Shown here: in pieces, positions 7,383-47,407 of the stretch
How the letters are laid out: every line of letters begins with the position of its first letter
Position numbering within the stretch: position 1 is the first letter of the stretch
Source of the DNA: an uncultured Enterobacteriaceae bacterium
Lineage (GTDB): Bacteria; Verrucomicrobiota; Verrucomicrobiia; Opitutales; UBA953
NCBI GenBank assembly: GCA_964633895.1
Contig: CAZWIK010000007.1
Coordinates: 104 to 64,103 of the forward strand
Length of the DNA: 64,000 nucleotides
Direction of reading: 5' to 3'
Notes under the pieces: model-generated
Database searches by the model: none
What the model saw: only the letters and a program-made list of their open reading frames with translations
Told to the model about the DNA's origin: nothing
Position numbers and translations under genes: made by a program

Positions 7383-7531
7383 CAAAAAAATATAAACGTC
7401 CTCTCTTGCGGACTTCGCTTGTTCCCGAGCGGGAGACATTCTGCGCTCGTTCCGCCCCCCCCCCTTGGAGCTTTCTCTTTTGCGCGCGTTCCCGCGCGGG
7501 AACGATTTTTTTTACGGGAGCGCGGGAACGG

Positions 7532-8215
7532 TCAGAATTTCAGTTTGATGGAAATTCCGGCGGAATCGGTCGGCGCGTCGTCGGTTTCGCTTCGAGCGTC
7601 GAATGCGCGCGTCCGGCGGAAATCGAAATTCAATTCCGCCGAGGGCGAAAGCAGGTAGGAAAATCCGAAGCCGCCGCCGAAGCCGTAATTTTTCGCGTAG
7701 TCGGCTGACGTCTCCGTGGAAACGTTGCCGAGCGTCAGCGTGGAGACGCCGTAAAGTTTGATTCGCGAGGAAATTTCCAGCGGAATGCGCGCGTCGATCC
7801 AGATTCGGTCGTCGCGGCTGTTGTCCGCCGCCTTGTCGGAAAGATATTCGCGCCCGCCGCCGTATTGGTCGTATAAATCGCCGTTCCCGAAATAAAATCC
7901 AGATTCCGCGCGCGCTTCGGGCGTTGTCTGCGGCGGGAGTTCCGCCTCCGCGAAAACGCGACCGTCCGCGTCAAGCGCGAAAGAGGGCGTTCCCGTTGCT
8001 GCCGTCGCGGGTTGTTTGTCGTCGGGTTCATCGTCTGCCACGGGAATGGTCGTCGCCGCGCCAGCCGCAGAAAGTCGCCGTTCCCGCGCGGCGTCCGATT
8101 CCGTCGCGCGCGTTTCATGAAAATTTTTGCCGTGGAAAAAAAACGCGACGCCGAGCGTTCCCGCGAGGACGGCGGGAATCAGCGCGACGACGAACTTAGT
8201 TTTTTTCCGAAGCAT
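7532..8215 (-). CDS. Membrane/exported protein with outer-membrane beta-strand-like C-terminus
   Basis: N-terminal hydrophobic segment, alternating beta pattern and terminal ISIKLKF. Start overlaps the MATE stop region. Confidence 0.55.
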   Translation of the reverse strand: MLRKKTKFVVALIPAVLAGTLGVAFFFHGKNFHETRATESDAARERRLSAAGAATTIPVADDEPDDKQPATAATGTPSFALDADGRVFAEAELPPQTTPEARAESGFYFGNGDLYDQYGGGREYLSDKAADNSRDDRIWIDARIPLEISSRIKLYGVSTLTLGNVSTETSADYAKNYGFGGGFGFSYLLSPSAELNFDFRRTRAFDARSETDDAPTDSAGISIKLKF

Positions 8216-9545
8216 TCCGAGAAAATACGCGTTTCCGCGAAAGATTTTTGTTCACGCGGAGACCGAGAATGAGCGCGATCGCCGCCAGCCCCGCGGCGAG
8301 TCCGATCCAGACGCCCGCGCCGTTCATTCCGAGCGGGAACGCGAGAATCAGCGCGGCGGGGCAGCCGATGAGCCAGTAGCTGACGAACGCCGCGCCGGCG
8401 ATGATGCGCACGTCGCCCAAGCCGCGCAGCGTTCCCGCGGCAATCGTCTGGAATCCGTCGAAAAGCATATACGCGCAGGCGATCAGTAGAAACGTCGCGG
8501 ACAGCGCCGAGGCTTCTTCGCCGAGATTGAAGAGCCGCGGGACGTCTTCGCGGAAATAGGTCCACGCGACGGCGTTTATTCCCATCAGCGCGAGCGTGAA
8601 GAGCGTCGCTCCCGCAAAAATCACGCGGATTCGCGGCGTATCCCCTTGCCCAAACGCTTCGCCGACGCGGATTGAAAGCGCCTGCGACACGCCGAGCGGA
8701 ATCATGTAGACGAGCGACGAAAGCGTGATGACGACCTGATTCGCCGCGATGGACGCTTCGCTGATCCAGCCCATGAAGAACGGCGTGAGAATGAAAAGCC
8801 CAGCCTCGAAAAGAATGTGCAGCGCGCTCGGCACGCCGACGCGGAGATTCTCCCGAATTTCCCGCGCCGAAAATCCGCGACCGAAGCGGCAGTCGAGTTT
8901 TTTCTGAATCGAAATTCCCGCGACGGAAATCAGGCGCGAAAAAAGCGTTCCCGCCGCCGCGCCTTCCAGCCCCCAATTCGGGAAACCGAGCGAGCCAGAC
9001 ATCAGTGCCCAGTTCAGAAAAACGTTCGCGCCCAAGCCGACGAGCGTCCATTGCAACGAAAGCCATTGCCCGCCGGTCGCGTCGCGAAACGATTTCAGAA
9101 CCTGAAACGCGGCGGCGGCGGGAACGGAAAGCGCGATGATGTAGGCGAAATTTTTCGCGTAATCGGCGACGCTCGCCGGCTGTCCGAGCATTTTCAGCCC
9201 GTCGGCGAAAATGAACGCGCACACGAGCGCGGCACCGATGACGGAAATGCCGACGCTGATGAGCAGCCCGTGGCGCAGGATTCCGGGAACGTCCTCGCGC
9301 CGTCCCGCACCGCGTGCCTGCGACGTCAGCACGGGAACGGCGACCGCCAGCCCGATGGCGAGTAGCAGCGGCGGCCAGTTCGCGTTGTTGCCGAGCGTCG
9401 CCGCGGCGAGCGCGTGTTCGCCCAGCATGTTCCCGATCATCACCGTGTCGATGACGCCGAAAAGCCCCTGCCCGAGCAGTCCGATCGTGATGGGAACGGA
9501 GAGGTGAAACGTGTAAATGAATTCTCTTCGGATTGCCGAAAACAT
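8196..9545 (-). CDS. MATE family efflux transporter
   Basis: About 12 hydrophobic segments with typical MATE motifs (LSVPITIGLL..GVIDTVMIG, LRGLGD, GVWIGL). Start moved to MFSAIRREF. Confidence 0.9.
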   Translation of the reverse strand: MFSAIRREFIYTFHLSVPITIGLLGQGLFGVIDTVMIGNMLGEHALAAATLGNNANWPPLLLAIGLAVAVPVLTSQARGAGRREDVPGILRHGLLISVGISVIGAALVCAFIFADGLKMLGQPASVADYAKNFAYIIALSVPAAAAFQVLKSFRDATGGQWLSLQWTLVGLGANVFLNWALMSGSLGFPNWGLEGAAAGTLFSRLISVAGISIQKKLDCRFGRGFSAREIRENLRVGVPSALHILFEAGLFILTPFFMGWISEASIAANQVVITLSSLVYMIPLGVSQALSIRVGEAFGQGDTPRIRVIFAGATLFTLALMGINAVAWTYFREDVPRLFNLGEEASALSATFLLIACAYMLFDGFQTIAAGTLRGLGDVRIIAGAAFVSYWLIGCPAALILAFPLGMNGAGVWIGLAAGLAAIALILGLRVNKNLSRKRVFSRNASEKN

Positions 9546-9730
9546 AAGTTCGCGTCTTCCATAACATAAAGCGCGGCGGGAACGCAAGAACGCCGAGAAA
9601 TCGCGGCGCGGAAGCGCGTCCGCGCTCCCGTGCGGCACGTCCGGAAGCGCGGCGACGTTTTCGCTCCGGATTCGATTTTTAATTGAAAACGCGGCGGGAA
9701 TGGATTGCATTATGCGCAGGCGGAAAATCC

Positions 9731-10366
9731 ATGGGCGAAGAATACAAATGTGATATTTGCGGCGCGCCGGCGAGCGTGCATCTGACGCAGATCGTGGACG
9801 GAAAAATCCACAAGGTTCACCTCTGCGAAAAATGCGCGGCGAAGAGCAAAGTCGCGGAGCTGCCGATTCTGAAATTTACGGAAATGCTCGCAAAGACGCT
9901 CGCGTCCGGCGGGAAAAAGTCGGAGGAGGAAGTCGCGGGAACGGAAGCCGTCGGGCGCGCCCCGACGAAGATTTGTCCGGTTTGCGGCATGACGGATGTC
10001 GTTTTCGAAAAAAAGCATTTGTTCGGCTGCCCGCATTGCTATGAAGTTTTTTCCGAGGAAATTTCCGCGATGCTGCCCAAAATTCAGCGCGGAAAAAATT
10101 ATCGCGGGGACGCTTTCGTCAAAAAGAACGCGGGCGGGGAAACGCCGTCCGCCGCGAAAGACGCGGGAACGCTTCGCGCCGAGCTGAAATCCGCCGTCGA
10201 AAAGGAAGATTACGCGCTCGCCGCCCGCCTTCGCGACGAGCTGCGCGCGCTTGAAGCGGAAGGGAAAAAGAAGCCGCGCGTTCCCGCGGCGAAAAAACGT
10301 CCGTCCGCGAAGGGCACTCCCGCCGCCGCGCAGAGGAAAAAATCTTCCGGAGGACGCGCGGCATGA
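9731..10366 (+). CDS. mcsA: McsA (UvrB/UvrC-motif zinc protein)
   Basis: Four CxxC pairs (CDIC, CEKC, CPVC, CPHC), UVR motif AVEKEDYALAARLRD, upstream of mcsB. Confidence 0.9.
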   Translation: MGEEYKCDICGAPASVHLTQIVDGKIHKVHLCEKCAAKSKVAELPILKFTEMLAKTLASGGKKSEEEVAGTEAVGRAPTKICPVCGMTDVVFEKKHLFGCPHCYEVFSEEISAMLPKIQRGKNYRGDAFVKKNAGGETPSAAKDAGTLRAELKSAVEKEDYALAARLRDELRALEAEGKKKPRVPAAKKRPSAKGTPAAAQRKKSSGGRAA

Positions 10367-11463
10367 GCGATTCGTTCGACGAATTTCTCGCGGAAACTTC
10401 CGCTCCCGCGCGCGGCGGAAACGCGCGCGTTCCCGCGCATCCGTGCGCGCTCGGCGTGCGCGTCCGTCTGGCGAGAAATCTCGCGGGAACGCCGTTTCCG
10501 AACTGGGCGGGCGCGGCGCGGCGGAAACAGGTTTTCGAAAAAATTTCTTCGGCGGCGGCGCGCGTTCCCGCGTTGAAGGACGCGTTTGTCTTCGAGCGGG
10601 AACGGCTTTCTCCCGTGCGGCGGGATTTCTTCGTCGAGCGGCGCTGCATTTCGTCCGATCTCGCGGGCGAGGGGAGCGGCGTCATCATTTCGCGTTCCCG
10701 CGACGCCGCGTTGATGATCAACGAAGAAGATCACCTGCGGATGCAGTTTTTCGCCGCCGGCGACGATTTCGGCGCGGCGTGGACGAAAGCCCGCGCGACG
10801 GAAAACGCGCTCGCCGAACATCTCGATTTCGCGTTTTCCGAAAAATACGGTTTTCAGACCGCTTGCCCGACGAACGCGGGAACGGGGCTGCGAATTTCCG
10901 TCATGCTGCATCTTCCCGGATTCGTGATGGAAGGGCAGATGGAGAAAATTTTCCGCGCGCTGAGCGCCGTCGGTCTTACCGTGCGCGGCGCGCTCGGCGA
11001 AGGTTCGGAATCCAAGGGCTGCGTCTTTCAGATTTCCAACGAATACACGCTCGGCATCAGCGAAAACGAGACGCTCGCGCTGATGCGCCGCTGGACGAGC
11101 GACGTCGTCGAACAGGAACTCGCCGCGCGGCGGCGGATTTTTTCGCGGGAACGCTTTCGCATCGCCGACCGCATCGCGCGCGCCTACGGCAGTTTGCGCT
11201 ACGCCGTCGCCATTTCCGCCGACGAATCGACGGAGTTGCTTTCGCTTTTGCGCATGGCGTGCGACGCCGGCGCGTTCCCGCCGAAAATGCGGGAATGCGC
11301 GGACGAACTTTTTCTCGAAACGGGGCGCGCCCACATCGCGTGCCGCGCGGCGTTCCGCGGCATCGTCTGCGACGAATCGCGCGAAAATCTCTTGCGCGCG
11401 AAGCTGTTTCGTGAGACGCTCTCCGCAATCCGTCCCCCCGTTTTCCCCGATTTTCTGAAATAA
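10363..11463 (+). CDS. mcsB: Protein arginine kinase McsB
   Basis: RVRLARN, INEEDHLR, TACPTNAGTGLR and FQISNEYTLG motifs. Confidence 0.92.
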   Translation: MSDSFDEFLAETSAPARGGNARVPAHPCALGVRVRLARNLAGTPFPNWAGAARRKQVFEKISSAAARVPALKDAFVFERERLSPVRRDFFVERRCISSDLAGEGSGVIISRSRDAALMINEEDHLRMQFFAAGDDFGAAWTKARATENALAEHLDFAFSEKYGFQTACPTNAGTGLRISVMLHLPGFVMEGQMEKIFRALSAVGLTVRGALGEGSESKGCVFQISNEYTLGISENETLALMRRWTSDVVEQELAARRRIFSRERFRIADRIARAYGSLRYAVAISADESTELLSLLRMACDAGAFPPKMRECADELFLETGRAHIACRAAFRGIVCDESRENLLRAKLFRETLSAIRPPVFPDFLK

Positions 11464-11469
11464 ATCCGC

Positions 11470-12204
11470 ATGAGCATTTCTCCGCAGAAAAAGACGCCTT
11501 GGCGCGTCGCCGGAAAGAGCGACGTCGGCGTTGTGCGGCGCACGAACGAAGATGCTTTTTTATGCGATGAAGCGCGCGGATTTTTCGCCGTCGCCGACGG
11601 CGTCGGAGGCTTGGATTTCGGCGAAAAAGCGAGCCGCGCCGCCGTGGAAAGCGCGGGAAAAATTTTCGGTGCGCTGGGCGTTCCCGCGACGGAGCGTCCT
11701 GATTTTTCCGCGATTTTCCGAAAAATCGACGAAGAAATCGGCGCGTTGGGCGAATCGCTCGTTCCCGGATTCGGCATCGCGACGACGCTCGACGTCGTCG
11801 TCGACGGCGGGAACGGCACGGTTCATTTCGCGCATCTCGGCGATTCCGGAATTTTTCTTTTTCGCGGGAACGAACTCGTTTTGCTTTCCGAAGAACACAC
11901 GATGGCGACGGCAGAACGCGCGCGCGGGAACGAAAATTTTCCCGTCGCTTACGCGAACACGCTGACGCGCGCGCTCGGCGTCGGCATCTGCTGCGAGCCG
12001 CAGGTTTTTTCGCTCGCGCTCAAGCCCGGCGATAGAATTTTGGTCGCGACGGACGGCATCACGCGTGCGCTGCCTTTCCGGCGGATCGAAAAAATCGTCG
12101 GCGCTCCCGCGGGAACGCCGGAAAAAATCGCCGACGCGCTGATCGCCGCCGCGAACGATTGCGGAGGGAACGACAATTCGACCGCCGTTCTCGCGTTTTT
12201 CTGA
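11470..12204 (+). CDS. PP2C-family Ser/Thr protein phosphatase
   Basis: RRTNED, VADGVGG, HLGDS, TDG and GGNDNST motifs. Confidence 0.9.
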   Translation: MSISPQKKTPWRVAGKSDVGVVRRTNEDAFLCDEARGFFAVADGVGGLDFGEKASRAAVESAGKIFGALGVPATERPDFSAIFRKIDEEIGALGESLVPGFGIATTLDVVVDGGNGTVHFAHLGDSGIFLFRGNELVLLSEEHTMATAERARGNENFPVAYANTLTRALGVGICCEPQVFSLALKPGDRILVATDGITRALPFRRIEKIVGAPAGTPEKIADALIAAANDCGGNDNSTAVLAFF

Positions 12205-12940: not shown

Positions 12941-12942
12941 TT

Positions 12943-14480: not shown

Positions 14481-14596
14481 AAAACCGCGTCGGAGGCTGC
14501 GGGAACGCCCGCGTTTTCCGGCGCGTCAGATTTGTTTCGCGTTCCCGCGCGGGAACGCCTATTTTCTCCCGCCACGAATTTTTATTTTTTCAGGTT

Positions 14597-18621: not shown

Positions 18622-19992
18622 ATGCCTTTCGGAAAAAAGTTTTTTCGGAAAAAACGGACGCCGGTTTCGGCGTTTCGCGTCGCGGGAGTGCTGTGTTCTG
18701 TCGGATTTTGTTTCGGTTGCGCGTCGCAGCCGGCGTTCCCGCTGGATTTCGCGCAGACCGTTCCCGCGGGAACGGAAACTTTGGACTCGCGGGAAGCGTT
18801 GCGCCGCGCGGTCGACGAAACCGTCGCCGCGTGCGCGGAAGCCGCTTCGCTTCCGAAAGACGTTTTCGCTTCGGAGAATCTCGGCGTTTACGCGGATTAT
18901 CTCATCGACGGCGCGGTGGGAAAAGGGCTTTCCACGGATGAGGCGAAACTGCCGATTTCGGCGTTGTTGCTCGCGTTCGCGCACGAAAAAAGAGGTTCGC
19001 TTTCCCGTGCGCTGACCGCGTTTTCCGAAGTCGTCTACGCGTTCCCGGACACGAATTTCGCGGCGGAGGCGCTTTATCGGCAAGGCGAAATTTATTCGCG
19101 CCGCCGCCAGTTCGAAGCTGCGTTCGACTGTTTTTCCGCGCTTGAAGATTCGTATCCGGCGTCCCCGCGCGCGGGAGACGCCGTCGTGCAGGCATATCTC
19201 GTCACGGGAATGGTTCGCGCGGGTGTGCGTCCGCTGAAAGGCGGTTGGCTTCCGTGGCTGAAAGACCGCACTTCCGCGCTGAAATTTTACGATCGACTTT
19301 ATGAAATGGCGCCGCACGAGGCGATTTCGCCGATGCTGCTTCACCGCAAGGGCGAGCTTGCGTTCGAGATTTCGAGCCACTGGTTCTCGTTCGACAAGAC
19401 GCTTGACGCGATCGACGCGTTCGAGCGTCTGATCAGCGTTTATCCGGAATCCGAACTCGTTCCCGACGCGTATCTGAAACTTGCCCGCACGTATGAATCC
19501 GGCTCCGTCGGTCCCGACTGGGATCAGCTTTCCGCCCGCCGCGCCATCAATTACTACACGGATTTTTATTCGCTTTATCCGGAGCATCCGCAGGCGGAAG
19601 CCGCTTACGAAAAAACCGTGGAGCTGACGAATCTGCTTGCGGCGAACCGGCTGACCATCGGCGATTTTTATTATTCTCGGCACAACAATCTGCGCGCCGC
19701 GTTCACGTTTTACAACGAAGCCGTGACGATCGCGCCGGATTCTCCCGCGGCAGCCGCCGCGCGGGAACGCATCGAGCGCATTCGGCGCGGCGAACGCTCG
19801 GAGCGCAATTTCGTGGATTGGCTTTTCGGGCGCTATCGAAATTACGACGCGATGGATTATCTCGACGCGCCGTCGCTTCGTCCGCTCGACGAAATGGGCT
19901 TCCGCAGCGGGAACGGCGAACAGTCGGACGCGGATTCCGCCGCCGCGCGGCGGACGGACGCCGATCTACCCGGAAACATAAACGACAACTAA
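18622..19992 (+). CDS. bamD: Outer membrane assembly lipoprotein BamD-like (TPR)
   Basis: Lipobox-like CFGC, TPR-like repeats, AIDAFERLISVYPES and LAANRLTIGDFY; adjacent to lptE. Confidence 0.75.
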   Translation: MPFGKKFFRKKRTPVSAFRVAGVLCSVGFCFGCASQPAFPLDFAQTVPAGTETLDSREALRRAVDETVAACAEAASLPKDVFASENLGVYADYLIDGAVGKGLSTDEAKLPISALLLAFAHEKRGSLSRALTAFSEVVYAFPDTNFAAEALYRQGEIYSRRRQFEAAFDCFSALEDSYPASPRAGDAVVQAYLVTGMVRAGVRPLKGGWLPWLKDRTSALKFYDRLYEMAPHEAISPMLLHRKGELAFEISSHWFSFDKTLDAIDAFERLISVYPESELVPDAYLKLARTYESGSVGPDWDQLSARRAINYYTDFYSLYPEHPQAEAAYEKTVELTNLLAANRLTIGDFYYSRHNNLRAAFTFYNEAVTIAPDSPAAAAARERIERIRRGERSERNFVDWLFGRYRNYDAMDYLDAPSLRPLDEMGFRSGNGEQSDADSAAARRTDADLPGNINDN

Positions 19993-20001: not shown

Positions 20002-20523
20002 ATGAATTTCTTTTCGAAATTTCGCAAAACGATATTCGCTTCCGCGCTTCTTCTTGCGGCGGGAACACTCGCGGGCTGCGGCTACAAGCTCGGCGGCTTG
20101 GGCGAAATGCCTTTTTCCACGATTGAAATCAGCCCGATCGTGAACGACGCGGATCTGCCGCAGGCGCAGGCGACGCTCGCGCGCGACATCGCGGACACGC
20201 TGAACCGCGAGCCGCGTCTGCACACGGTCGTCGAAGGCGGCGAGGCGGAACTGCGGATCGTCATCAAAGATTACAGCCGAAGCATCACGGCGAAAGCGGC
20301 GCGGGATTCCGTTCTCGCGAGCACGCAGAAGCTGACGCTGAAACTTTCCTGCTCGCTCGTGAACACGCGCACGGGAAAATTTTATTTTCGCGACCGCCCC
20401 GTTTCCGTTTCGACGGAAGTCTACACGGGAACGTCTCCCGGGCTCGGCGAGCCGCAATCGTTTCCCGTGCTTTCCCGCGAGGCGGCGAGAAAAGTCCGCG
20501 ACATGATCGCGAGCGTCTGGTGA
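20002..20523 (+). CDS. lptE: LPS assembly lipoprotein LptE
   Basis: Lipobox LAGC followed by GYKLG; size and position fit LptE. Confidence 0.8.
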   Translation: MNFFSKFRKTIFASALLLAAGTLAGCGYKLGGLGEMPFSTIEISPIVNDADLPQAQATLARDIADTLNREPRLHTVVEGGEAELRIVIKDYSRSITAKAARDSVLASTQKLTLKLSCSLVNTRTGKFYFRDRPVSVSTEVYTGTSPGLGEPQSFPVLSREAARKVRDMIASVW

Positions 20524-20608
20524 GCCTCGGCGTTCCCGCGCGGGAACGGACGGGCGAAAGGCTTTGCGTTCCCGCGGGGCGAACGATATTTTCTTTTTTC
20601 GGAAAAAA

Positions 20609-25227: not shown

Positions 25228-25839
25228 ATGAAAAAACGTGCATTTACTCTCATTGAAATTCTCGTCGTCATCGGCATCATCGGCATTCTCGCCTCGGTTC
25301 TGATTCCGGCTGCGGGCATGGCGAAAAACGCGGTGACGCGCTCCAAGACGAAAGCGCGTTTCAACGAATGGGTTACTGGCGTCGAACAGTATAAAACGAC
25401 TTACGGCTATTATCCGACGCTGGGGCAGAACACGTCCACTGATTCCGACGCGCATTTCAATCTCGGCGATTCGTCCAATAGCGAGGCGTTCGTGAAATCG
25501 CTCTCCGGTCGCGATCCGGAAACCGGCGACAAACTCACGGGAACGGAACGTTCCAAATACAATCGCAAGGCGACGGAATTCTGCTCGTTTTCCAGCGAAG
25601 ATTTTACGCAGAGCGACGGCTCGACCGAATACGGGAAGCTGGTTGACGGCTTCGGCAACAACAACATTCATCTCGTGATGGACACGACCGGAAACGGGCG
25701 CGTCGAAATTCCGCAACAGTATCTGCCCGACGACGCGACGGATGACGAGAAAAACGTCAAGGGCATGATGGGGCGCGTCATTATCTTCACGTCGAAAGTC
25801 GACAGCGAGGATTACGAGTCCGTTTACAGCTGGCGCTGA
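25228..25839 (+). CDS. Prepilin-type N-terminal methylation protein (GspG/major pilin-like)
   Basis: RA|FTLIEILVVIGIIGILA followed by EQYKTTYGYYP. Confidence 0.88.
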   Translation: MKKRAFTLIEILVVIGIIGILASVLIPAAGMAKNAVTRSKTKARFNEWVTGVEQYKTTYGYYPTLGQNTSTDSDAHFNLGDSSNSEAFVKSLSGRDPETGDKLTGTERSKYNRKATEFCSFSSEDFTQSDGSTEYGKLVDGFGNNNIHLVMDTTGNGRVEIPQQYLPDDATDDEKNVKGMMGRVIIFTSKVDSEDYESVYSWR

Positions 25840-25910
25840 TTTTTTTTCGCGGGAACGGAAAAGACGCGGGAACGGATTCCGAATTTTTATAATCTTTTCA
25901 GGAAAAATCT

Positions 25911-26639
25911 ATGCCACGGGAATTTTTCGGAAAACGCGCTTTCACGCTGATTGAAATTCTGACGGTGATCGCCATCATCGGCATTCTCGCCTCCGTGATC
26001 GTCGGGCTGCGCCCCGGAAATCCTCGCGGGCTTGAAGACGCGCGCAGAATCGCTTCCGCCGAATTCCGCGTCGCGCAGGCGAAAGCCGCTCTCGGCGCGA
26101 ATCCCGACCGCGATCCCGACCAGAACGCCCGATACAACATCCGTTCGGGAATCCTCATTCTCGACGATCCGGAGGACACGGAGCGGCATCTGCGCTTCAT
26201 TCAGCCGATCGTCGGCGGAACGGACAGCCTGTCGAAGACGGATTTGTCCGATTATTACTGGTATTCCGCGGGCGACGGCACGTTGCTCCCGCAGGGCGTT
26301 TTTTTTGTGGCGCCGGACGAATCCGGCGTCAGCGTGCGGAGCGTCATTCAGCCGATCGAGGGTTCTTCCCAGGTGACGATCGATCCGGATCTCCGTTCGG
26401 GAGGGCAACGTTTTGGCTCCGGCTCGAAAAAATGGTATCTCTATCTTTTCGATTCGAACGGTCAGACCTATATGACCAAGGCAGTTTTTATGATGGCGGA
26501 AGGGCGAATGGATCCGTCGAAGAAATCCGTCGATTTCGGCGACGATCCGTTCGTTTCCGGTTTCGTCGTTCACCGCAGCGGCGCGTTGTCGTTCACGCGC
26601 GACGACGAGGAAGCGAAGGCGGCGATGCAGGACGACTGA
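25911..26639 (+). CDS. Prepilin-type protein (Verru_Chthon cassette D-like)
   Basis: RA|FTLIEILTVIAIIGILA. Confidence 0.8.
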   Translation: MPREFFGKRAFTLIEILTVIAIIGILASVIVGLRPGNPRGLEDARRIASAEFRVAQAKAALGANPDRDPDQNARYNIRSGILILDDPEDTERHLRFIQPIVGGTDSLSKTDLSDYYWYSAGDGTLLPQGVFFVAPDESGVSVRSVIQPIEGSSQVTIDPDLRSGGQRFGSGSKKWYLYLFDSNGQTYMTKAVFMMAEGRMDPSKKSVDFGDDPFVSGFVVHRSGALSFTRDDEEAKAAMQDD

Positions 26640-26685
26640 CGCGTTTTTCCCGCATTCCCGCAGCAGAATTTTCACCCATTTTCTT

Positions 26686-27396
26686 TTGACGATGAGCATT
26701 TTCAGAAAAAACATACGTTCCCGCAGGAGGGGCTTCAGTCTGGTGGAAGTCCTGCTCGCGCTCGCGGTTCTGGGCATCGCGATGCTTTCCGTGATGGGAC
26801 TGCTGAACGCGACGTTCGAGACCGTTTCCAGAAACGTGATGACGCGGCAGGCGCTCGGCGTTTATTCCTGCTTGGACCGCGCGCTTTCGTCCGTGTCGTC
26901 CGTGATTCGTTCGGACGGTTCCGCTTACGTTTCCGAGTCGCAGATGACGAAGAGTTCGTTCGATTACGTTTACGATTGGGTGCATTCGAAGACGGGGAAA
27001 AACTGGGACGACGCGGTGTTTCTCGTGTGCGTTTCCCGCCGCTTGAACGCGTCGGACGATTCTTCGCCGCAACAGCTTCTTCAGATCGTCAAATGCGACA
27101 GCTCTTCGGGAACGCCGTCGCAGACCGAACTTAACGACTTGGACGCGGAAGGACCGACGTATTTCATGCGCGTTTATCTTTCGCCGCAGCTGGAAGGGCG
27201 CTACGTCGAAATGAACGCCAAAGGGGAAGTGCAACCCACGCAGTATTCCGTCGGCGACTCCCTGCCGTCGTCCGCCGATTATTACGCGCTCCCGTATCTT
27301 CCGCTCACGGTGGATATTTATCCGTTCACGCCCGGCAGCGCGAAAACCGAGGATCAGATTCCGGTGCTGACGCAATTTTTGGTGCTTTCCCGCTGA
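26686..27396 (+). CDS. Prepilin-type protein (Verru_Chthon cassette B-like)
   Basis: RG|FSLVEVLLALAVLGIAML. Confidence 0.8.
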   Translation: MTMSIFRKNIRSRRRGFSLVEVLLALAVLGIAMLSVMGLLNATFETVSRNVMTRQALGVYSCLDRALSSVSSVIRSDGSAYVSESQMTKSSFDYVYDWVHSKTGKNWDDAVFLVCVSRRLNASDDSSPQQLLQIVKCDSSSGTPSQTELNDLDAEGPTYFMRVYLSPQLEGRYVEMNAKGEVQPTQYSVGDSLPSSADYYALPYLPLTVDIYPFTPGSAKTEDQIPVLTQFLVLSR

Positions 27397-27446
27397 GACC
27401 GCGGGAACGGAAAAAAAACAATTCGGACACACGCGAGGTTCCCGCA

Positions 27447-28487
27447 ATGATGACGATGAGACACGAAAAACAGAAAATGCGCCGGCGGGCGTTCACGCTG
27501 ATCGAGCTGATGGCGGCGACGGCGATCATGATTATTCTCGTGATGTTCGTCACCACCATCGCCGTGAACATGTTGCGCGTCTACGACAAGACGATCGCGA
27601 CGCTCTCCACCAACGCCGACGCGGGAATGCTTCTCGATCCGTTCCAGGACGACCTGCTGTCGGCGGCGATGCCCGACGACGGGAACTACTGGTTCGAAAT
27701 CCGCTACGAATCCGACGTGGACAACGTGGAAAAAACTTCCGCGCCAGATATCTTGTTTTTCTCGCGTCCGCAGGACCGCATTCGACGGGAACGCAACTCC
27801 AAAGACATTCTGCCCGGCGATCTCTGCGCCGTCGCATACAAACTGGCGCACCAGTCGCCGTTCGGTTCGAAATTTTCGTCGTCGTCCGGCAATCTCGTTT
27901 ACGGTCTCTATCGCTCGGTGCTGAACGCGAAGGACACCTTCGGCTCCGCGCTCCCGTTCATCATCGGACAGAAGAGCACGTCGGACACGACGAAGTTGCC
28001 GTCCGGCTTTTGGAAAAGCGGCACGCAGATCGAAGATCCGTCCAACAAACAGTCGTATTCCGCCGGCGCGTGGCGCACGGAACTTCAGAATTTCCTCGTC
28101 GACGGAATCGTCGATTTTTCCGTGTTTTTCTGGTTCGACGACTTTTCCGACGGCAAGCGGAAAATCGCCGCCGTGAACAATTCCAAGCTCGTGCAGAAGC
28201 TGCGCTCGCTTTTCCCGAACACGACCGTCGTGACTTTTGAAAAATCTCTCGCGGCGAGCGCGGGAACGCTCGTATTCGACGATAATTTTTCCGGAAAAAC
28301 TTCCGGCGCGCTCCGCTCGCTGGACGTTTCCATTACCGTGCTCGATCCCGAAGGGAAAGAGCTTCTTCAAGCGAAGCAAGAGCAGAAAAGTTCCGGAAAA
28401 ATCGACGAAGCCGAGTTCGAGGAAATTCTGCTGGAACACGGCGCGACATTTTCCCGCGCCTGCTCGCTGTTCGGCGGTTCCCGCTGA
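27447..28487 (+). CDS. Prepilin-type protein (Verru_Chthon cassette C-like)
   Basis: RA|FTLIELMAATAIMIIL, and LLVDGIVDF-like plus DVSITVLD C-terminal strands. Confidence 0.8.
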   Translation: MMTMRHEKQKMRRRAFTLIELMAATAIMIILVMFVTTIAVNMLRVYDKTIATLSTNADAGMLLDPFQDDLLSAAMPDDGNYWFEIRYESDVDNVEKTSAPDILFFSRPQDRIRRERNSKDILPGDLCAVAYKLAHQSPFGSKFSSSSGNLVYGLYRSVLNAKDTFGSALPFIIGQKSTSDTTKLPSGFWKSGTQIEDPSNKQSYSAGAWRTELQNFLVDGIVDFSVFFWFDDFSDGKRKIAAVNNSKLVQKLRSLFPNTTVVTFEKSLAASAGTLVFDDNFSGKTSGALRSLDVSITVLDPEGKELLQAKQEQKSSGKIDEAEFEEILLEHGATFSRACSLFGGSR

Positions 28488-34030: not shown

Positions 34031-36361
34031 ATGGATACAGAAAATCCGGAAACGAATGACATTTCCCTTACGGGCGGAGACGCGCCAGAAACGGGCGTTC
34101 CCGCGGAAAACTCCGCCGTTCCCGCGCCGAAGCGGCGCGGTCGTCCGCCGAAAAATCCGGACGCGACGCCGGTCGTGAAGCGCCCGCGCGGGCGTCCCCG
34201 CAAAACGGCAGAAGTGCCGGCGGCGGAAAATATTCCGCCCGCTTCCGTTCCCGCGCCCGAACCGGAAATTCCGTCCGTTTCCGTTCCCGCGCCCGAATCG
34301 GAAATTCCGTGCGCTTCCGTTCCCGCCGCCGCGCCCGCGGAATCTCCGTCCGCGTCGGAATCCATGCCGCCGGTGAACGTTTCGCCGGACGTTCCTGCGC
34401 CGGAAAAACTGCTCTTTTCTTTTGAGCCGGAAAACGAGTCGGAGCCTGCTCCCGCGAAAGACGCGCCGGAAGCCGTCGCGCCTGCTTCCGTTCCCGCGCC
34501 TGCTTCCGTTCCCGCGCCCGCGTCGGACGCGTCGTCTGCGTCCGTCGAAGACGAGACGCCTCCGTTCCCGTCCGTCAAGCCCGTCGAGCCCAAACCTTGG
34601 GAAAAGAAGGATCGCCCGTGGCAGCAGAAAAAGCAGTGGGAACCTCGCGGGAACGAAAACGCGGGCGGCGGTTTCGCGCCTCAGAACGGCGGAAAGCCGT
34701 GGGAAAGGAAAGACCGTCCGGCGTTCCCGCCGCGTCCGCAGCAGCCGAAATTCGGCGGCGGAAAATTCAACGCGCAGGGCAAGTTCGAAAAGTTCCGCGG
34801 GAACGACAAAGCGCCGGCGAAGCGAAGCTGGGGCGAACTGGCGAACACGGATTCCGCCGAGGAAGCGTCGCTTTCTCTCGGCACGGCGTATGATTACAAT
34901 TTGCTGAACGACGAGGCGTATCTCGACGAGCTTTCCCGGCTCGCCCGCCACGTGGCGAAGCGCGCGGACGGCGCGTCCGCCGTGCCGTCGACGCCGACGC
35001 CCACCGACGTTCCCGCGGCGGAAAACGCGCCCGCGGATTCGCCCGTTCCCGCGCCCGCGCGCGCCGAATTGCTGCCGGATCTTCCCGCGGCGACGATTGA
35101 TTTCAACGAAGTTTACGAATCGTCGATGTCGATGCTGATCGCCGCCGCGAAATCGTTCGGCATTCCCGTTTTCCGCAATCCAGTGCGCCGTCCGCTCGTG
35201 AAAAAAATTCTGCGCGCGGCGTTCGCGGAAAGCCGTCCGATCGCGATCCGCGGCACGCTGGAAATGCTCGCCGACGGGAACGGTCTTCTGCTCTACGGTT
35301 GCGACAGCTACCGCGTGAAGGAGCTGAGCGCGTTCGTGCCGCAACTTCTGATCAAAAAATTCGGACTGCAACGCGGACACGACATCGAGGCGATCGCCTA
35401 TCCGCCGATGAAAGGCGAAACCGCGCCGATCGTCGTTCACATTTGTTCGATCGCGGGAGCCGATCCCGGAACCGTCAAGGATTTGACGCCGTTTACGGAA
35501 TTGACGCCGTATTATCCGACCGAACGCATCATGCTCGAAACGGACGAAACCGTCGAGTGGAACAATCTTTCCATGCGCTGCGTCGATCTGCTTTGCCCGA
35601 TCGGACTCGGTCAGCGCGGACTCATCGTCGCGCCGCCGCGCACGGGAAAAACGGTGCTGCTTCAGGCGATCGCCAATTCCATCGCGAAAAACAAGCCGGA
35701 CGCGCATCTGATCGTGTTGCTCGTGGACGAACGCCCCGAAGAAGTGACGGATTTCAAGCGCAAGACCAAGCACGGCGAAGTCATTTCCTCGACGTTCGAC
35801 GAGAACGCCGAAAACCACGTTCACGTCGCGGAAATGGTCATCGAGCGCGCACGCCGCATGGTCGAACTCGGCAAGAACGTCATCATTCTGCTCGATTCGA
35901 TCACGCGCCTCGCGCGCGCCTACAACACGCTGATGCCGAACGGAGGGAAAATTCTTTCCGGCGGCGTCGAGGCGGGAGCGCTTTCCAAGCCGAAACGCTT
36001 TTTCGGCTCCGCGCGGAACATCGAAAACGGCGGTTCGCTGACGATTCTCGGCACGGCGCTCATCGACACGGGATCGAAAATGGACGAAGTCATTTTCGAA
36101 GAATTCAAAGGCACGGGCAACATGGAACTCGACCTCGACCGCGAGCTCGCGAACAAGCGCATTTATCCGGCGATCAATTTCGAACGTTCGGGAACGCGCA
36201 AGGAAGAACTGCTTTATCATCCGCAGGAAATGCAGTGCGTTTATTCCATGCGCCGCGCGATGAAGGGCGTTCCCTCGATCGAGGCAATGGAAATGCTCAT
36301 TTCCCGCATGAAAAAGACGAAAACCAACGCCGAATTTCTGATGACGCTTGCCGGGCGCTGA
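34031..36361 (+). CDS. rho: Transcription termination factor Rho with long N-terminal disordered extension
   Basis: [39 protein letters not shown] and FKGTGNMEL; about 300 extra Pro/Ala/Glu- and Lys/Gln-rich N-terminal residues. Confidence 0.96.
34243..34326 (+). repeat. 36-bp tandem repeat (about 2.3 copies) in the rho extension
   Basis: Units start at 34243, 34279 and 34315 (ttccgttcccgcgcccgaa.cggaaattccgt); also an 18-bp duplication at 34481-34516. Confidence 0.9.
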
Positions 36362-36495
36362 CGCAGGTTTTTTCGTCCATTTACGCAAAGCGTTTCCGCG
36401 CGGCGAAAGCCGTTCCCGCGGGAACGCTTTTTTTTTGCGCGGGAACGCCTCGTCGGCGAGATTCAAAGCCGCGCCGCGCGCTGGAGCGAAAAAAT

Positions 36496-40163: not shown

Positions 40164-42218
40164 ATGAGTTACGCGCTTTCCCGTTTTAATGCCGTGCGAC
40201 GCCCGACGCGCGAAGTTTCCGTCGGCGGAGTCGGCATTGGCGGCGGAAATCCGATCCGCTTCCAGTCGATGACGACGACGAACACGCTCGACGTCGCGGG
40301 AACAGTCGCCCAGTGCATCAGGCTCGCGGAAGCGGGAAGCGAGCTGATTCGGATCACCGCTCCGACGGTCGAGGCCGCGCGCGCGCTGCGCGAAATTCAT
40401 CGCGCTTTCCGCGAAGCGGGATTTTCTCAGCCGCTGGTCGCCGACATTCACTTTCTGCCGGCGGCGGCGATGGAAGCGATCGAGCACGTCGAAAAAGTCC
40501 GCATCAATCCCGGAAATTACGCGGACAGGCGTTCGGCGTTCCCGCGCGATTACACGGACGCGGAATACGCGGCGGAGCTGGAGCGCGTCGCGGAAGCGGT
40601 CTCGCCGCTGATCCGCCGCGCGAAGACGCTCGGCCGCGCGATCCGCATCGGCACGAATCACGGCTCGCTTTCCGAGCGGACGCTGAACCGTTTCGGCGAT
40701 ACGCCGGCGGGAATGGTCGAGGCGGCGATGGAATTTGTCCGCATCTGCGAAGCCGAAGGATTTTACGATCTCGTACTTTCGATGAAATCGTCGAACGTGC
40801 GCGTGATGATCGAGGCGTATCGGCTCGCCGTGAAAACGATGCGCGACAACGGAATGAATTATCCCGTGCATCTCGGCGTGACCGAAGCGGGCGAGGGCGA
40901 GGACGCGCGGATCAAATCCGCCGTCGGAATCGGTTCGCTTCTACTCGACGGCATCGGCGACACGATCCGCGTCTCGCTCACGGAAGACCCGTGGCGCGAG
41001 CTTCCCGCATGCCGCGAAATCGCTTCCCGCATCGAAAAAATCTGCACGCGTCCGAGCGATCCCAATCCCGTTCCCGCACCGGTGCGCGACACGGACATCG
41101 AGGCGTTTTCCTATCGCCGCCGGAAAATCGTTCCCGCGGAACTCGGCTCGGGCGTGAGAATTTCCTCGGACGAGCCGCCGCGCGTGTTCGCGTTCATCGA
41201 TGCGGAAAAGCCGCTCGCCGACACGGTGGCGGAGCTGCAGACGCTTCTCGACGAAACGCGCGGAAGGACGCCGGTCGAAGGTCTCGTGCTCCCGATGGCG
41301 ACGGAGAGCGATCTCGCCGCCGCCTGCGAAATTCAGGCAATGTTCGAAAACGAAATTCCGGCGTTCGTCTTCGATCCCGTGAAAACGAGCGTTCCCGCGC
41401 TTTTCGAAAAACTTTCCCCGTCGAAAAAATCCGCGACATACATTCAGCGGCGCTTCAATCCCGCGAACGCGGAAATCATTCCCGACTGGATCGCGCTCTG
41501 CCGCGCAAAAAACATCGGGCTTGTCGTCGACGCGACGGCGGGCGCGCGCGCGGCGGTCATTCCCGCGCTGGAAGGATTTCCGCAGGACAAACTCATTTTT
41601 ACATCGAGCCGGAAAAGCCCGGACGCGCACCCCGTCGGCGTTTACCGAAAACTCGCGCAGATGCTGGCGAACGCGGGAATTCTCGCGCCGATTTGGATAC
41701 GCTCCACCGTGAAAAACACAATCCTGCCGCTGCCGAAATTCGGCGGCGGGAACGACGCGCGCGTCGAGGCTTCCCTGCTCGCGGGATCGTTGCTGTGCGA
41801 CGGCATCGGCGACGTGCTCAGCGTGGAGCTTTCTTCGTCTCCGGCGCGCAACGTCGCGCTCGCGTATGACATTCTTCAGGCGGCGCGTTCCCGCCGTTTC
41901 AAGACGGAATACATCGCGTGCCCAAGCTGCGGGCGCACACAATACGACATTCAGGAAACCGTGAAAAAAATCAAGGAGCGCACGGGGCATCTGAGCGGCG
42001 TTACCATCGGCGTGATGGGTTGCATCGTGAACGGTCCCGGCGAAATGGCGGACGCGGATTTCGGCTACGTCGGCGGCGCTCCCGGGAAAATCAATCTCTA
42101 CGTGCGCAAGGAATGCGTGGCGCGCGGAATCCCGCAGGAAGAAGCCGTCGAACGCCTCATCGAGCTGATTAAAAAACACGGGAAGTGGAAAGAAAAAGAC
42201 GAAAGCCGCGCGGCATGA
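40164..42218 (+). CDS. ispG: HMBPP synthase, long (inserted-domain) form
   Basis: QSMTTT, VADIHF, RINPGN, RIGTNHGSLS and IACPSCGRT...GCIVNGPGE. Confidence 0.96.
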   Translation: MSYALSRFNAVRRPTREVSVGGVGIGGGNPIRFQSMTTTNTLDVAGTVAQCIRLAEAGSELIRITAPTVEAARALREIHRAFREAGFSQPLVADIHFLPAAAMEAIEHVEKVRINPGNYADRRSAFPRDYTDAEYAAELERVAEAVSPLIRRAKTLGRAIRIGTNHGSLSERTLNRFGDTPAGMVEAAMEFVRICEAEGFYDLVLSMKSSNVRVMIEAYRLAVKTMRDNGMNYPVHLGVTEAGEGEDARIKSAVGIGSLLLDGIGDTIRVSLTEDPWRELPACREIASRIEKICTRPSDPNPVPAPVRDTDIEAFSYRRRKIVPAELGSGVRISSDEPPRVFAFIDAEKPLADTVAELQTLLDETRGRTPVEGLVLPMATESDLAAACEIQAMFENEIPAFVFDPVKTSVPALFEKLSPSKKSATYIQRRFNPANAEIIPDWIALCRAKNIGLVVDATAGARAAVIPALEGFPQDKLIFTSSRKSPDAHPVGVYRKLAQMLANAGILAPIWIRSTVKNTILPLPKFGGGNDARVEASLLAGSLLCDGIGDVLSVELSSSPARNVALAYDILQAARSRRFKTEYIACPSCGRTQYDIQETVKKIKERTGHLSGVTIGVMGCIVNGPGEMADADFGYVGGAPGKINLYVRKECVARGIPQEEAVERLIELIKKHGKWKEKDESRAA

Positions 42219-43563: not shown

Positions 43564-43671
43564 TGATAAAAAGGCTAAATCGTTTTTTTTTTGAGCAACC
43601 CAATTCGGGAAACGGGACGTTTTTTTTCCGCTTTTCGTCGAGATTAAAGCGCATTAGTCTTGCGCGCAACT

Positions 43672-44772: not shown

Positions 44773-44785
44773 GCCGAAAAAAAAC

Positions 44786-47407
44786 TTGGAGGTTTCGCCG
44801 GAAAGTCTCCCGATTTTTGAACTGCGGGAACGCCTGAAAGCCGCGTGCGGACGTTCCCGCCGAATCGTTTTGCAGGCGCCGACAGGTTCGGGAAAATCGA
44901 CTCAGATTCCGCAGATGCTACTCGACGACGGACTCGTTCCCGCAGGCGGGCAGATCGTCGTGCTCCAGCCGCGCCGACTGCCGACGCGGATGCTCGCGGC
45001 GCGCATCGCGCGGGAACGCGGCTGTCCGCTCGGCGGCGAAGTCGGCTATCAGATCCGTTTCGATCGTATCGAATCCGAGGATACGCGGATAAAATTCGTT
45101 ACGGAGGGTCTGCTCTTGCGCCGACTTCTCGGCGGGAACGAGGGCGGCGACGCTTCCCGCATCGGCGCGATCGTCTTCGACGAGTTTCACGAACGGCATC
45201 TTTATTCCGATCTGACGCTCGCAATTGCACTTGAAATGCAGCGCACGACGCGTCCGGATCTGCTGATCGTCGTGATGTCCGCGACGCTCGACACGGAATC
45301 GCTCTCGACGTGGCTTTCTCCCTGCGAGACGCTTTCGGCGCAGGGGCGAATGTTTCCGATCGAAATCGAATATTCCGCCGCCGCGTCAGGGCTCGCGGGA
45401 ACGCGGAATCGCGCCGGATTTCCGCCGCGCCGCGCGGTCTGGGATCACGCCGCCGCCGCGTTCCGCAAAGCGTATCACGACGAACCGGAAGGCGATTTTC
45501 TCGTCTTCATGCCCGGCGCGTATGAAATTTCGAAAACGATCGCCGCGATCGCGGGAACGCCGGAGGGACGCGATTGCGCGGTGTTGCCGCTCTACGGCGA
45601 GCTTTCCTCGGAGGCGCAGGACCGCGCGGTCGCTCCCGCGCCTGCGGGAACGCGCAAGGTCGTCGTCTCAACGAATGTCGCGGAAACTTCGCTGACGATT
45701 CCCGGCGTGCGCGTCGTCATCGATTCCGGCTTGGCACGCGTCGCTCGCTATGATCCGCATCGCGGCATCAACATGCTGCTGATAGAAAACATTTCCCGAA
45801 GCTCCGCGGATCAGCGCGCCGGACGCGCCGGCCGCACAGCACCCGGACGATGCGTGCGCCTTTGGTCGCGTTCGGAACACGAGAGCCGCGCCGCGCGCGA
45901 CGTTCCCGAAATCCGTCGCGTCGAGCTTTCCGAAGCTGTTCTGCTTCTGAAAGCGGGCGGTATCCAGAATCTGGATGCCTTCCCGTGGTTCGAAAAGCCT
46001 GACGGGAACGCGCTCGCGGAATCGCTTTCGCTGCTGCGTGATCTCGGCGCGGTCGACGCGGCGGGAACACTGACGGCGACGGGCGCGGCGATGGCGCGTT
46101 TTCCGCTGCATCCGCGCTATTCTCGAATGATGCTCGCCGCCCGCGGACTCGGCTGCGCGCGTCAGGTCGCGTTTGTCGCGGCGATGGCGCAGGGGCGCGA
46201 CGTCATGCTCGACCTTGCGGATCGCCGCCGCGCGGAGGAACGCGAGGAGTTACTCGGCGAAACGGATTCCGACTTTTTTCATCGGCTTACGCTGCTCGGC
46301 ATGGCGCGGGAAAAAGATTTCGACGCCGAATTTTGCCGCCACTGGGGCATTCACGCGGGCGCGGCGCGGCAGGCGGACAAGCTCGCGGCGCAGTTTTTGA
46401 AAATCGCTGAGTCCGTTTTTTCGCGGGAACGCGGAGCGGACGCGGGAACGGAAAAAGAAGCGGATTCGGATGTCCACGATGCGGTGCGGCAGTGCCTTTT
46501 GCTCGGCTTTGTTTCTCAGCTCGCGCGGCGCATCGACGCGGGAACGCTGCGCTGCCGCCTTGTCCGCGGACGCGCCGGAGAACTGCGTCGCGGGAGCGCT
46601 GTGCGTCACGCAAAGCTTTTCGTCGCGGCGGAAGTCGAGGAAATTCAGACGCGCGGCGAAGTAACGGTTTTCCTTTCGCTCGCGACGGCGGTCGAGGAAG
46701 CGTGGCTCGAAAAATATTTTCCGGACGATTTTGAAACGCGGGATTCCGTTTTTTTCGATTCGGTTCAAAAGCGTGTGCTCACGCGGCGGGAACGCGTTTT
46801 TCGCGGTCTGGTCATGAGTTCGCGGGAACTGGCGGACGTCGCCGGAGACGCGGCGTCGCGCCTGCTCGCGGAAGAAGTGCTCGCCGGACGGCTTGCGCTT
46901 GAAAAATGGGATTCGCAGGTCGAAGCGTGGATTTGCAAAGTGAATTTCGCGGCGGCGCATTGTCCGGAACTGGGCATCGCGCCGATCGACGACGAAGGGC
47001 GGCGAATGCTCGTCGAAGAGCTTTGCCTCGGCGCGACGGCGTATCGCGATATCCGCGAGAAGCCGGTCTGGAAAACGCTTCGCGGCTGGCTTTCGCGGGA
47101 ACAGGAAGCGGCGATGGAATCGCTTTTGCCGGATTCGATTTCGCTTCCGCGCAAAAAACATCCGGCGAAAATCGTCTACACGGAAGACTGCGAGGCGGTC
47201 GTCGGCGCGACGGTGCAGGAACTCTACGACGTCGCGGGAACGCGGCTGAAAATCTGCGGCGGGCGCGTGCCGCTCGTCGTGGAAGTGCAGTCGCCCGCGC
47301 GGCGGACGGTGCAGCGCACGACGGATCTCGACGCTTTCTGGAAAACTTCTTACGAACACGTGAAAAAAGATTTGAAAGGTCGCTATCCCAAACACGAGTG
47401 GCGCTGA
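44786..47407 (+). CDS. hrpB: ATP-dependent RNA helicase HrpB
   Basis: APTGSGKST, FDEFHER, MSAT, QRAGRAGR and C-terminal LKGRYPKHEW; probable TTG start at 44786. Confidence 0.94.
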   Translation: MEVSPESLPIFELRERLKAACGRSRRIVLQAPTGSGKSTQIPQMLLDDGLVPAGGQIVVLQPRRLPTRMLAARIARERGCPLGGEVGYQIRFDRIESEDTRIKFVTEGLLLRRLLGGNEGGDASRIGAIVFDEFHERHLYSDLTLAIALEMQRTTRPDLLIVVMSATLDTESLSTWLSPCETLSAQGRMFPIEIEYSAAASGLAGTRNRAGFPPRRAVWDHAAAAFRKAYHDEPEGDFLVFMPGAYEISKTIAAIAGTPEGRDCAVLPLYGELSSEAQDRAVAPAPAGTRKVVVSTNVAETSLTIPGVRVVIDSGLARVARYDPHRGINMLLIENISRSSADQRAGRAGRTAPGRCVRLWSRSEHESRAARDVPEIRRVELSEAVLLLKAGGIQNLDAFPWFEKPDGNALAESLSLLRDLGAVDAAGTLTATGAAMARFPLHPRYSRMMLAARGLGCARQVAFVAAMAQGRDVMLDLADRRRAEEREELLGETDSDFFHRLTLLGMAREKDFDAEFCRHWGIHAGAARQADKLAAQFLKIAESVFSRERGADAGTEKEADSDVHDAVRQCLLLGFVSQLARRIDAGTLRCRLVRGRAGELRRGSAVRHAKLFVAAEVEEIQTRGEVTVFLSLATAVEEAWLEKYFPDDFETRDSVFFDSVQKRVLTRRERVFRGLVMSSRELADVAGDAASRLLAEEVLAGRLALEKWDSQVEAWICKVNFAAAHCPELGIAPIDDEGRRMLVEELCLGATAYRDIREKPVWKTLRGWLSREQEAAMESLLPDSISLPRKKHPAKIVYTEDCEAVVGATVQELYDVAGTRLKICGGRVPLVVEVQSPARRTVQRTTDLDAFWKTSYEHVKKDLKGRYPKHEWR

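Follow-up and report, generated by a model that had tools for sequence, protein, structure and literature searches.

What keeps a single short DNA word at a density of several copies per kilobase in a bacterial genome? The question is raised by a stretch of 64,000 nucleotides (hereafter the window) of contig CAZWIK010000007.1, which corresponds to C7:104-64103 in the focal genome of this study (G000; an assembly of 1.707 Mb in 76 contigs with a GC content of 58.6%). The positions 7487-47260 of the window are crowded with the nonamer GCGGGAACG/CGTTCCCGC, and the original prediction, made from the letters of the window, proposed this nonamer as a signal similar to the DNA uptake sequence (DUS) of Neisseriaceae and the uptake signal sequence (USS) of Pasteurellaceae. 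We here report that the signal at the DNA level is genus-wide, real and extreme. The best explanation is that Candidatus Spyradosoma maintains, at the level of the DNA, the octamer CGGGAACG with weak flanks (cG...c) as a 'self' word specific to the genus. As to the force behind the word, we give about an even chance to an uptake or recombination drive similar to those of DUS and USS, the word being additionally used in terminator stems.

Abundance and form of the word

The nonamer was found in 26 exact copies in the positions 7487-12130 (one per 179 bp), in good agreement with the count of about 25 made by eye in the original prediction. There were 146 copies in the positions 7487-47260 (3.67 per kb) and 175 in the entire window, while GCGGGAACG averaged 3.2 copies per window in 100 shuffles preserving dinucleotides and never exceeded 8. 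Genome-wide, the octamer CGGGAACG, the nonamer GCGGGAACG and the 11-mer CGCGGGAACGC amounted to 7,655, 5,581 and 2,146 copies, respectively, each being the commonest word of its length in the genome. The nonamer read backwards, which served as the control, occurred 50 times.

The logo built from all copies of the core read c(0.56) G(0.73) CGGGAACG c(0.56) and stopped at +/-2 bp. As the flanks further out hold no information, the word is free-standing with a length of 8-11 bp and is not a piece of a longer repeat. The motif of 9-10 bp proposed originally thus needs to be shortened, since the logo puts the true core at the octamer. All eight core positions are constrained about equally: the 24 variants with one mismatch occurred at 0.5-5.3 times the Markov expectation, none of them was depleted, and those made by transitions were enriched, as expected from mutational decay of the word. 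This constraint on all eight positions fits recognition of the whole word or replacement through a heteroduplex, and not a repair bias acting on one base.

The copies lie on both strands, within genes and between them, as had been noticed in the window and as was confirmed genome-wide. The two strands carry the nonamer in near-even numbers (2,882 vs 2,699), and the core occurs in all six reading frames, three of which dominate. Based on 1,331 genes called by a simple codon model, which cover 89% of the genome, the core density was 2.3-fold higher in non-coding than in coding DNA (9.0 vs 3.9 per kb). The spacing between cores (mean of 221 bp; coefficient of variation of 1.2) was random-to-clumped, showing no more regularity than a random placement. 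At least one copy was present on 87% of 500-bp and 97% of 1-kb fragments, as well as in 713 of the 726 genes of at least 900 bp; the remaining 13 genes have none.

The original prediction named codon or amino-acid usage and strict polarity relative to replication as grounds on which the enrichment could be dismissed, and neither accounts for it. When synonymous codons were shuffled within genes, so that both the proteins and the codon usage were kept, the nonamer was found 303 + 162 times, against 2,280 + 1,702 copies observed (465 vs 3,982 in coding sequences). The enrichment cannot be put down to the usage of codons or amino acids, because an 8.6-fold excess survives this shuffle. Among the 6,710 coding positions at which the encoded peptide can be written with the word, 5,747 (86%) were filled, whereas the codon usage outside the word predicted a fill of 3-28% depending on the frame. 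The word has reshaped the proteome as well: the peptide AGT was found 1,380 times, while its five permutations reached 209-294; the corresponding figures were 591 vs about 196 for RER and 426 vs 129-175 for RSR. With the strands oriented by the sign of the GC skew in 10-kb bins, the core split into 2,280 vs 2,078 copies (52:48). The skew test had power, because the same procedure detected the control octamer GCAGGGCG as 86% polarised (147 vs 24 in the skew-oriented bins). The latter octamer is by itself a candidate for a polar signal of this lineage, similar to Chi or to the FtsK-orienting polar sequences (KOPS).

Terminator stems, in which DUS and USS are found according to the original prediction, hold the word here too, as far as predicted folds tell. 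In the genome, inverted copies are tightly paired as CGTTCCCG(0-3 nt)CGGGAACG at about 110 places, half of them intergenic and several flanked by A/T runs, and the spacers between convergent genes showed the highest core density (12.3 per kb). In the positions 7-27 kb of the window, the word is part of each of the three terminator-like hairpins with the best scores, and four example hairpins had folding energies of -13 to -18 kcal/mol and were followed by U-runs (Table 1). In the hairpin at 12099..12120, the word forms one arm and a copy with one mismatch the opposite arm. The inverted pairs in spacers are thus terminator-like and probably serve as the stems of intrinsic terminators, as in the genomes with DUS or USS (10.1101/2025.10.24.684340), although such hairpins account for only a few percent of all copies.

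Range, conservation and decay of the word in Candidatus Spyradosoma

The public gcpE loci closest to that of the window were of gut metagenome-assembled genomes (MAGs) labelled as Opitutales or Candidatus Spyradosoma, which originated from the rectum of goat, sheep and water deer, the caecum of chicken, and humans; the gcpE sequence of one sampled genome (G004) was identical to that of Ca. Spyradosoma merdigallinarum. The nonamer was enriched in all of the 18 sampled sister species of the genus (340 to 5,600 copies). No enrichment was found in any of the 62 genomes of four other genera in the family or the 12 genomes from other families of the order, the counts being at or below those of the reversed control. 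The word was equally dense in species of which the sampled loci ranged from 49% to 67% in GC content. Within the genus, the changes seen were a small shift in the flank (TGCGGGAAC) and decay, and no switch to another word was seen. A further candidate for a verrucomicrobial word, ATGCTACCG, stayed at the background level in all 31 and all 81 genomes of the genus, family and order, so it belongs to a lineage outside those sampled.

The conservation of individual sites was examined in codon alignments of hrpB (15 species) and gcpE (24 loci representing 18 different sequences). The species being 79-84% identical to G000 kept 58-100% of the word sites of G000, against 15-29% of background octamers, and the identity at third codon positions was 0.74-1.0 inside the word and 0.56-0.68 outside. 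Thus, the word is conserved at the DNA level and in position.

The two alignments grouped the same genomes differently. The hrpB genes of G007 (L124:1434-4130) and G016 (L125:1494-4191) were 98.8% identical to each other, an identity confined to exactly 2,698 bp and flanked by unrelated DNA, while the gcpE genes of the same two genomes shared 69% identity; G006, the true sister of G016, was 95% identical to the latter across both the hrpB gene and its flanks. These alignments suggest a recent allelic replacement of the size of a gene among the species sharing the word, and 2.7 kb is plausible for a transformation tract.

Four species turned out to be sparse in the word, with about 750 copies each in G001, G002 and G013 and 340 copies in G014. 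In 58-98 kb of each of them, the original word was found at 0.28-0.62 per kb, and k-mer counts on the same DNA gave no new word that would represent a replacement dialect. The hrpB genes of G001 and G002 keep the peptides RER and AGT but write them as CGCGAGCGC and GCGGGTACG, while almost all of the other species compared retain CGGGAACGC and GCGGGAACG for the two peptides. The spelling GCGGGTACG contains GTAC. Peptide sites compatible with the word occurred at 3.9-4.8 per kb of coding DNA in the dense species of the genus (76-86% carrying the word), 2.4-2.8 per kb in the sparse species (13-27%) and 0.9 per kb in other Opitutales (4%). In the sparse species, the peptide sites remain above the level of other Opitutales while the word is mostly gone; therefore, these species descend from dense ancestors and ceased maintaining the DNA word. 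The force that maintains the word can thus be lost. A gcpE tree with outgroups also nests the sparse species among the dense ones, but we do not rely on it, as the gcpE and hrpB trees conflict with one another. The hrpB locus of G013 (L129; G013:C16:4697-10293) bears 15 copies in 5.6 kb at the positions seen in dense species, despite about 760 copies in the entire genome, and may be a recombined or mis-binned segment.

As saturated and decayed species coexist in one genus, the choice between drive and selection, as well as the protein responsible, becomes directly testable. Likewise, the peptide fossils of a force lost in some species turn the search for the reader of the word into a tractable problem of comparative genomics.

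Weighing an uptake or recombination drive

The DUS of Neisseriaceae, GCCGTCTGAA, and its 12-mer version AT-DUS occur in dialects and are read by the minor pilin ComP (PMC3630211; 10.1101/2025.10.24.684340). The USS of Pasteurellaceae have the 9-bp cores AAGTGCGGT and ACAAGCGGT, for which the receptor is unproven and the minor pilin ComN is predicted (10.1101/2025.06.16.659825; PMC3458573; PMC7811141), and are described to shape the proteome (PMC2817400). A survey published in 2025 treated uptake sequences as a trait of these two families (10.1101/2025.10.24.684340). The Spyradosoma word resembles DUS in being short, non-palindromic and restricted to a lineage, in occurring on the two strands, within genes (in preferred frames) and in spacers, in forming terminator stems by inverted pairs, in being scarce in recently acquired DNA, and in being accompanied by a type IV pilus, ComEC and DprA. 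With USS it shares a genome-wide core of 8-9 bp, the shaping of the proteome, the use in terminators and a four-gene cassette of candidate minor pilins, which is analogous to comNOPQ in layout (the layout only was compared); the receptor is established in neither of the two. On the other hand, the word belongs to the phylum Verrucomicrobiota, is unrelated to DUS in sequence, and has a core of 8 bp against 10-12 bp, while it differs from USS in bearing no AT-rich flanking segments and in its much higher density. DUS and USS occur roughly once per kb, whereas the Spyradosoma word stands at about 4.5 per kb and fills 86% of the permissible sites. Judged from the sequences, the word matches DUS and USS on every sequence-level criterion tested.

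The original prediction asked for co-occurrence with competence genes, the absence of which it named among the grounds for refutation, and competence genes were indeed found. G000 possesses ComEC (583 amino acids at C4:32979-34730, recognised by a match to the Competence domain; a run of N bases adjoining the gene makes its model uncertain), DprA on C55, a secretin operon on C2, and a pilB-pilT-pilB-pilC-like cluster on C27 that encodes two PilB-like ATPases, one PilT-like ATPase and a PilC-like protein. Seven prepilins were found in G000, including those of the four-gene cassette. Of the competence-related features, the cassette alone lies in the window; it is a candidate for a pilus-tip or minor-pilin set. 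Its synteny with ruvX is kept in G002, in which the pilins share 51-58% identity with those of the window, against 75% for RuvX. The pilins of the cassette thus evolve fast relative to RuvX. Four of the seven pilins, namely a basic pilin of 150 amino acids on C49 and three of the four pilins of the cassette, were compared with PDB entries by sequence: two pilins matched over the N-terminal helix only, the match of the first pilin of the cassette extended further, to PilE1 and PilA, and the fourth pilin had no match.

If the word is maintained by an uptake or recombination drive, the process would run as follows. A surface uptake machine comprising the type IV pilus, the PilT retraction ATPase, the secretin, ComEC and DprA would prefer the fragments carrying the word, and homologous recombination would then place the word in the recipient genome. 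Mutations creating the word would be over-transmitted and those destroying it under-transmitted, which amounts to a molecular drive, to which selection favouring exchange with the own kind may contribute. Over time, the word would have filled nearly every site tolerated by the proteins and accumulated in the spacers, the usage of amino acids would have been pushed towards AGT, RER, RSR, GN, VP and FP, and the inverted pairs in spacers would have been co-opted as the stems of intrinsic terminators. Both transformability and word-biased uptake are inferred here. If such a drive operates, the word represents a third independent case, and words marking self-DNA are a recurrent solution rather than a curiosity. 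About 4% of the genome is rewritten by the word, with visible changes in proteins; were the word an uptake tag, its addition to donor DNA would give a sequence handle on the genetic tractability of these gut bacteria.

Several observations weigh against the uptake or recombination drive. The DUS/USS-like signal proposed originally stood in its sequence profile, its restriction to a lineage and its conservation at the DNA level, whereas the receptor side did not follow: ComEA was not detected in the genome, where the sole match to HHH_3 was Tex of 778 amino acids, and no ComP entry was among the PDB matches listed for the four pilins compared by sequence, so that G000, unlike the genomes with DUS, has yielded neither a ComP-like pilin nor ComEA. 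The pilin models matched in NCBIfam were generic or below the threshold; those matched by the cassette, weakly and below the threshold, were GspG/H/I, PilV, and the proteins B, C and D of the 'Verru_Chthon cassette'. The competence and pilus families are widespread in bacteria not known for uptake specificity, and the control genomes match most of them. No gene loss tracking the decay of the word was found among ComEC, the prepilin counts and the cassette of G002: ComEC is present in 19 of the 19 genomes of the genus, including those of the sparse species, the prepilins (7-11 per genome) are not fewer in the sparse species, and sparse G002 retains the four-pilin cassette of the window intact at the identity of 51-58%. 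The pilus genes themselves are poor in the word (0-2.5 per kb). Uptake of one tag per fragment does not obviously predict a saturation of 86% together with a density about 5 times that of DUS and USS, nor are this saturation and the random-to-clumped spacing what it predicts; they are more reminiscent of a force working on each site by itself. In addition, the hrpB exchange between G007 and G016 could be an artefact of MAG assembly or binning. The papers searched gave no description of uptake sequences in Verrucomicrobiota and nothing relevant on the word or Spyradosoma, the matches to the word itself being fortuitous ones in primers. We know of no report of natural transformation in Verrucomicrobiota.

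The saturation and the unordered spacing fit a benefit or drive per site, and thereby bring in HIP1 (GCGATCGC) of cyanobacteria, a hyper-abundant palindromic octamer with the sites of two orphan methyltransferases (PMC4390886; PMC5861425; PMC13756078; 10.1101/2024.09.10.611283). By analogy, the word could be bound by an abundant chromosomal protein or system, for example one acting in nucleoid organisation, cohesion, replication or repair, and be selected site by site with no link to uptake, a reading that we hold to be doubtful but worth serious consideration. Hyper-abundance, conservation both inside open reading frames and between them and depletion in foreign DNA all resemble HIP1 (PMC5861425), as do the length of eight bases, the frequency in the order of one per gene or more and the loss in some lineages, and the failure to find an uptake receptor or ComEA also speaks for it. 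Nevertheless, selection would have to hold about 7,600 sites individually while distorting the proteome, which needs a measurable benefit per site, and, given the decay of the word in four species, the function would have to be one that can be dispensed with. Being non-palindromic, the word is an atypical site for a dimeric protein, and no candidate protein was identified. HIP1, for which a periodicity of 10-90 kb is reported, further differs in spanning a phylum, whereas the Spyradosoma word is confined to one genus; no cognate methyltransferase was found for the word. Moreover, HIP1 itself is now linked to transformation (10.1101/2024.09.10.611283), in which a paper of 2026 proposed it to aid (PMC13756078), and this link blurs the line to the uptake or recombination drive; as HIP1 is the other hyper-abundant word known, the proposal also speaks for such a drive in Spyradosoma. 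Over-represented lineage-specific octamers are known also as Chi, KOPS and the architecture imparting sequences (AIMS), but those are co-oriented with replication and far sparser, while the Spyradosoma word is split 52:48 and the polarised octamer of G000 is GCAGGGCG, not the word. This absence of polarity bears on the reading of the word as a mark of self-DNA for a nuclease, helicase or defence system, by which word-dense DNA would be spared or repaired and word-less DNA degraded in a Chi-like manner: RecBCD, AddAB and FtsK read oriented sites. The genus specificity, the high density, the depletion in islands and the marking of nearly any fragment (87% of those of 500 bp, 97% of those of 1 kb) agree with such a marker, and the loss of the trait in some species parallels the frequent loss of defence systems. 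We consider it improbable, however, as word-poor islands and the 13 genes of at least 900 bp with no copy persist in the genome, and 0 of 203 IMG/VR viral contigs retrieved with paired-word patterns reached a native-like density, giving no sign of mimicry by phages. The latter negative, obtained in two scans, is weak, as the phages of the host may lie outside the collection. Five of the viral contigs (L288, L303, L312 (IMGVR_UViG_639633036), L344 and L307) bear clusters of palindromes such as CCGGGAACGTTCCCGG within about 150-300 bp; these were rejected as a signal of word-bearing phages, since their appearance is that of operator arrays and they have no relation to the word found genome-wide.

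Site saturation would also fit a conversion of each near-cognate site to the word after replication or deamination, through a biased repair of the very-short-patch type linked to a methyltransferase or endonuclease. The genome does show strong signatures of restriction-modification (GGCC, GTAC and CTAG at 0.07-0.14 of expectation) and two candidates for DNA methyltransferases. The N6 methyltransferase at C33:6087-7388 lies in a word-rich core region but belongs to a widespread mobile family found across many phyla, some members of which are fused to an R.PabI-type (GTAC) nuclease; it fits the avoidance of GTAC, not the word. The C5 methyltransferase at C47:9270-10403 sits in a word-free island. 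Accordingly, we rejected both as being linked to the word, and no cognate methyltransferase was found for it, although the regex prefilter may have missed others. Repair of this type would be expected to remove one particular near-cognate variant, but no one-mismatch variant is depleted. With all eight positions constrained about equally, the enzyme would have to read seven of the eight bases and fix any error, and we regard biased repair as very improbable. The reading that the word has no function at the DNA level, being a by-product of codon usage, amino-acid usage or mutation or else a remnant of a dispersed mobile element, draws on the GC-richness of the word in a genome of 58.6% GC and on the dominance of three of the six frames, but is already refuted by the controls: the word exceeds the synonymous shuffle 8.6 times and is denser in non-coding DNA, its uninformative flanks exclude a longer repeat, it persists at 49-67% GC but is absent from the sister genera of similar composition, and synonymous positions are conserved inside the word and not elsewhere. 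Finally, the word might be no uptake tag but the footprint of an undescribed, switchable system enforcing one 8-bp word at essentially every tolerated site, which we think unlikely. Such a system would be a drive by per-site conversion or self-marking, and the four species that lost it would show neutral decay over a preserved peptide fossil. Should the word prove to be something other than an uptake tag, its maintenance would point to biology not yet described.

Layout of the window and minor observations

The positions of the features are listed in Table 1.

Table 1. Features of the window, numbered from its first nucleotide
Feature	Position	Strand	Remarks
Native word-dense core	7487..47260		146 GCGGGAACG, 185 CGGGAACG (4.65 per kb); both strands, genes and spacers
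Word-poor segment with type III-B Cmr/Cas10 genes	1..7486		52% GC; 1.07 nonamers per kb
Word-poor segment, srfB/virulence-factor-like and GTPase island	47261..64000		54.6% GC; 1.25 nonamers per kb
gcpE/ispG, orthologue test	40164..42218	+	Clade-A species keep 4-5 of 5 comparable sites, vs 16-29% of background octamers
hrpB helicase, orthologue test	44870..47407	+	13 sites; 7-9 of 11-12 alignable sites retained in species with 79-82% identity
Four prepilin-type genes (203, 242, 236 and 346 amino acids)	25228..28487	+	Upstream of ruvX; candidate pilus-tip or minor-pilin set
18-bp perfect palindrome CGTTCCCGCGCGGGAACG, two inverted copies, followed by ATTTTTTTT	7487..7504	+	Terminator-like; -13.2 kcal/mol
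Terminator-like hairpin CGGCGTTCCCGCGGGAGCGCCG and T-run	12099..12120	-	Best score of the scanned 20 kb; -18.2 kcal/mol
Inverted pair CGTTCCCGCGCGGGAACG	14540..14557	+	Downstream of gene 13506-14480; 8-bp stem, -14.9 kcal/mol (z = -3.25)
16-bp palindrome CGTTCCCGCGGGAACG, two overlapping inverted copies	18759..18774		
18-bp palindrome, two inverted copies	20531..20548		Just past gene 20002-20523
16-bp palindrome followed by CTTTTTTTTT	36411..36426	+	50 bp past the rho stop codon; terminator-like, -15.7 kcal/mol
Rho tandem repeat	34243..34326	+	Each unit holds CGTTCCCGC and encodes a VPAP-type peptide

The native core is bordered by word-poor DNA on both sides, and the segment 1..7486 behaves as more recently acquired DNA. 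Elsewhere in the genome, the sparsest bins comprised an island with a GC content of 44% and apparent operons of ribosomal proteins and rpoBC. The latter are the low-density regions on C16 and C10, which resemble such operons in gene sizes, gene order and an L7/L12-like motif only; if this assignment is right, their low density reflects constraint, and the reading of these two regions as foreign islands falls away. The word thus appears to be excluded in two ways, by recent acquisition of the DNA and by strong coding constraint.

A second cluster of four prepilin genes was found in G001, G002, G013, G014, G018, G012 and G003, which possess 10-11 prepilins instead of 7; the presence of this cluster does not track the density of the word. 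In the window, the Rho gene (34031-36361) encodes an N-terminal extension of about 400 residues that is partly made up of tandem repeats with CGTTCCCGC in every unit. The repeats in this extension show the word altering, and being amplified into, protein sequence.

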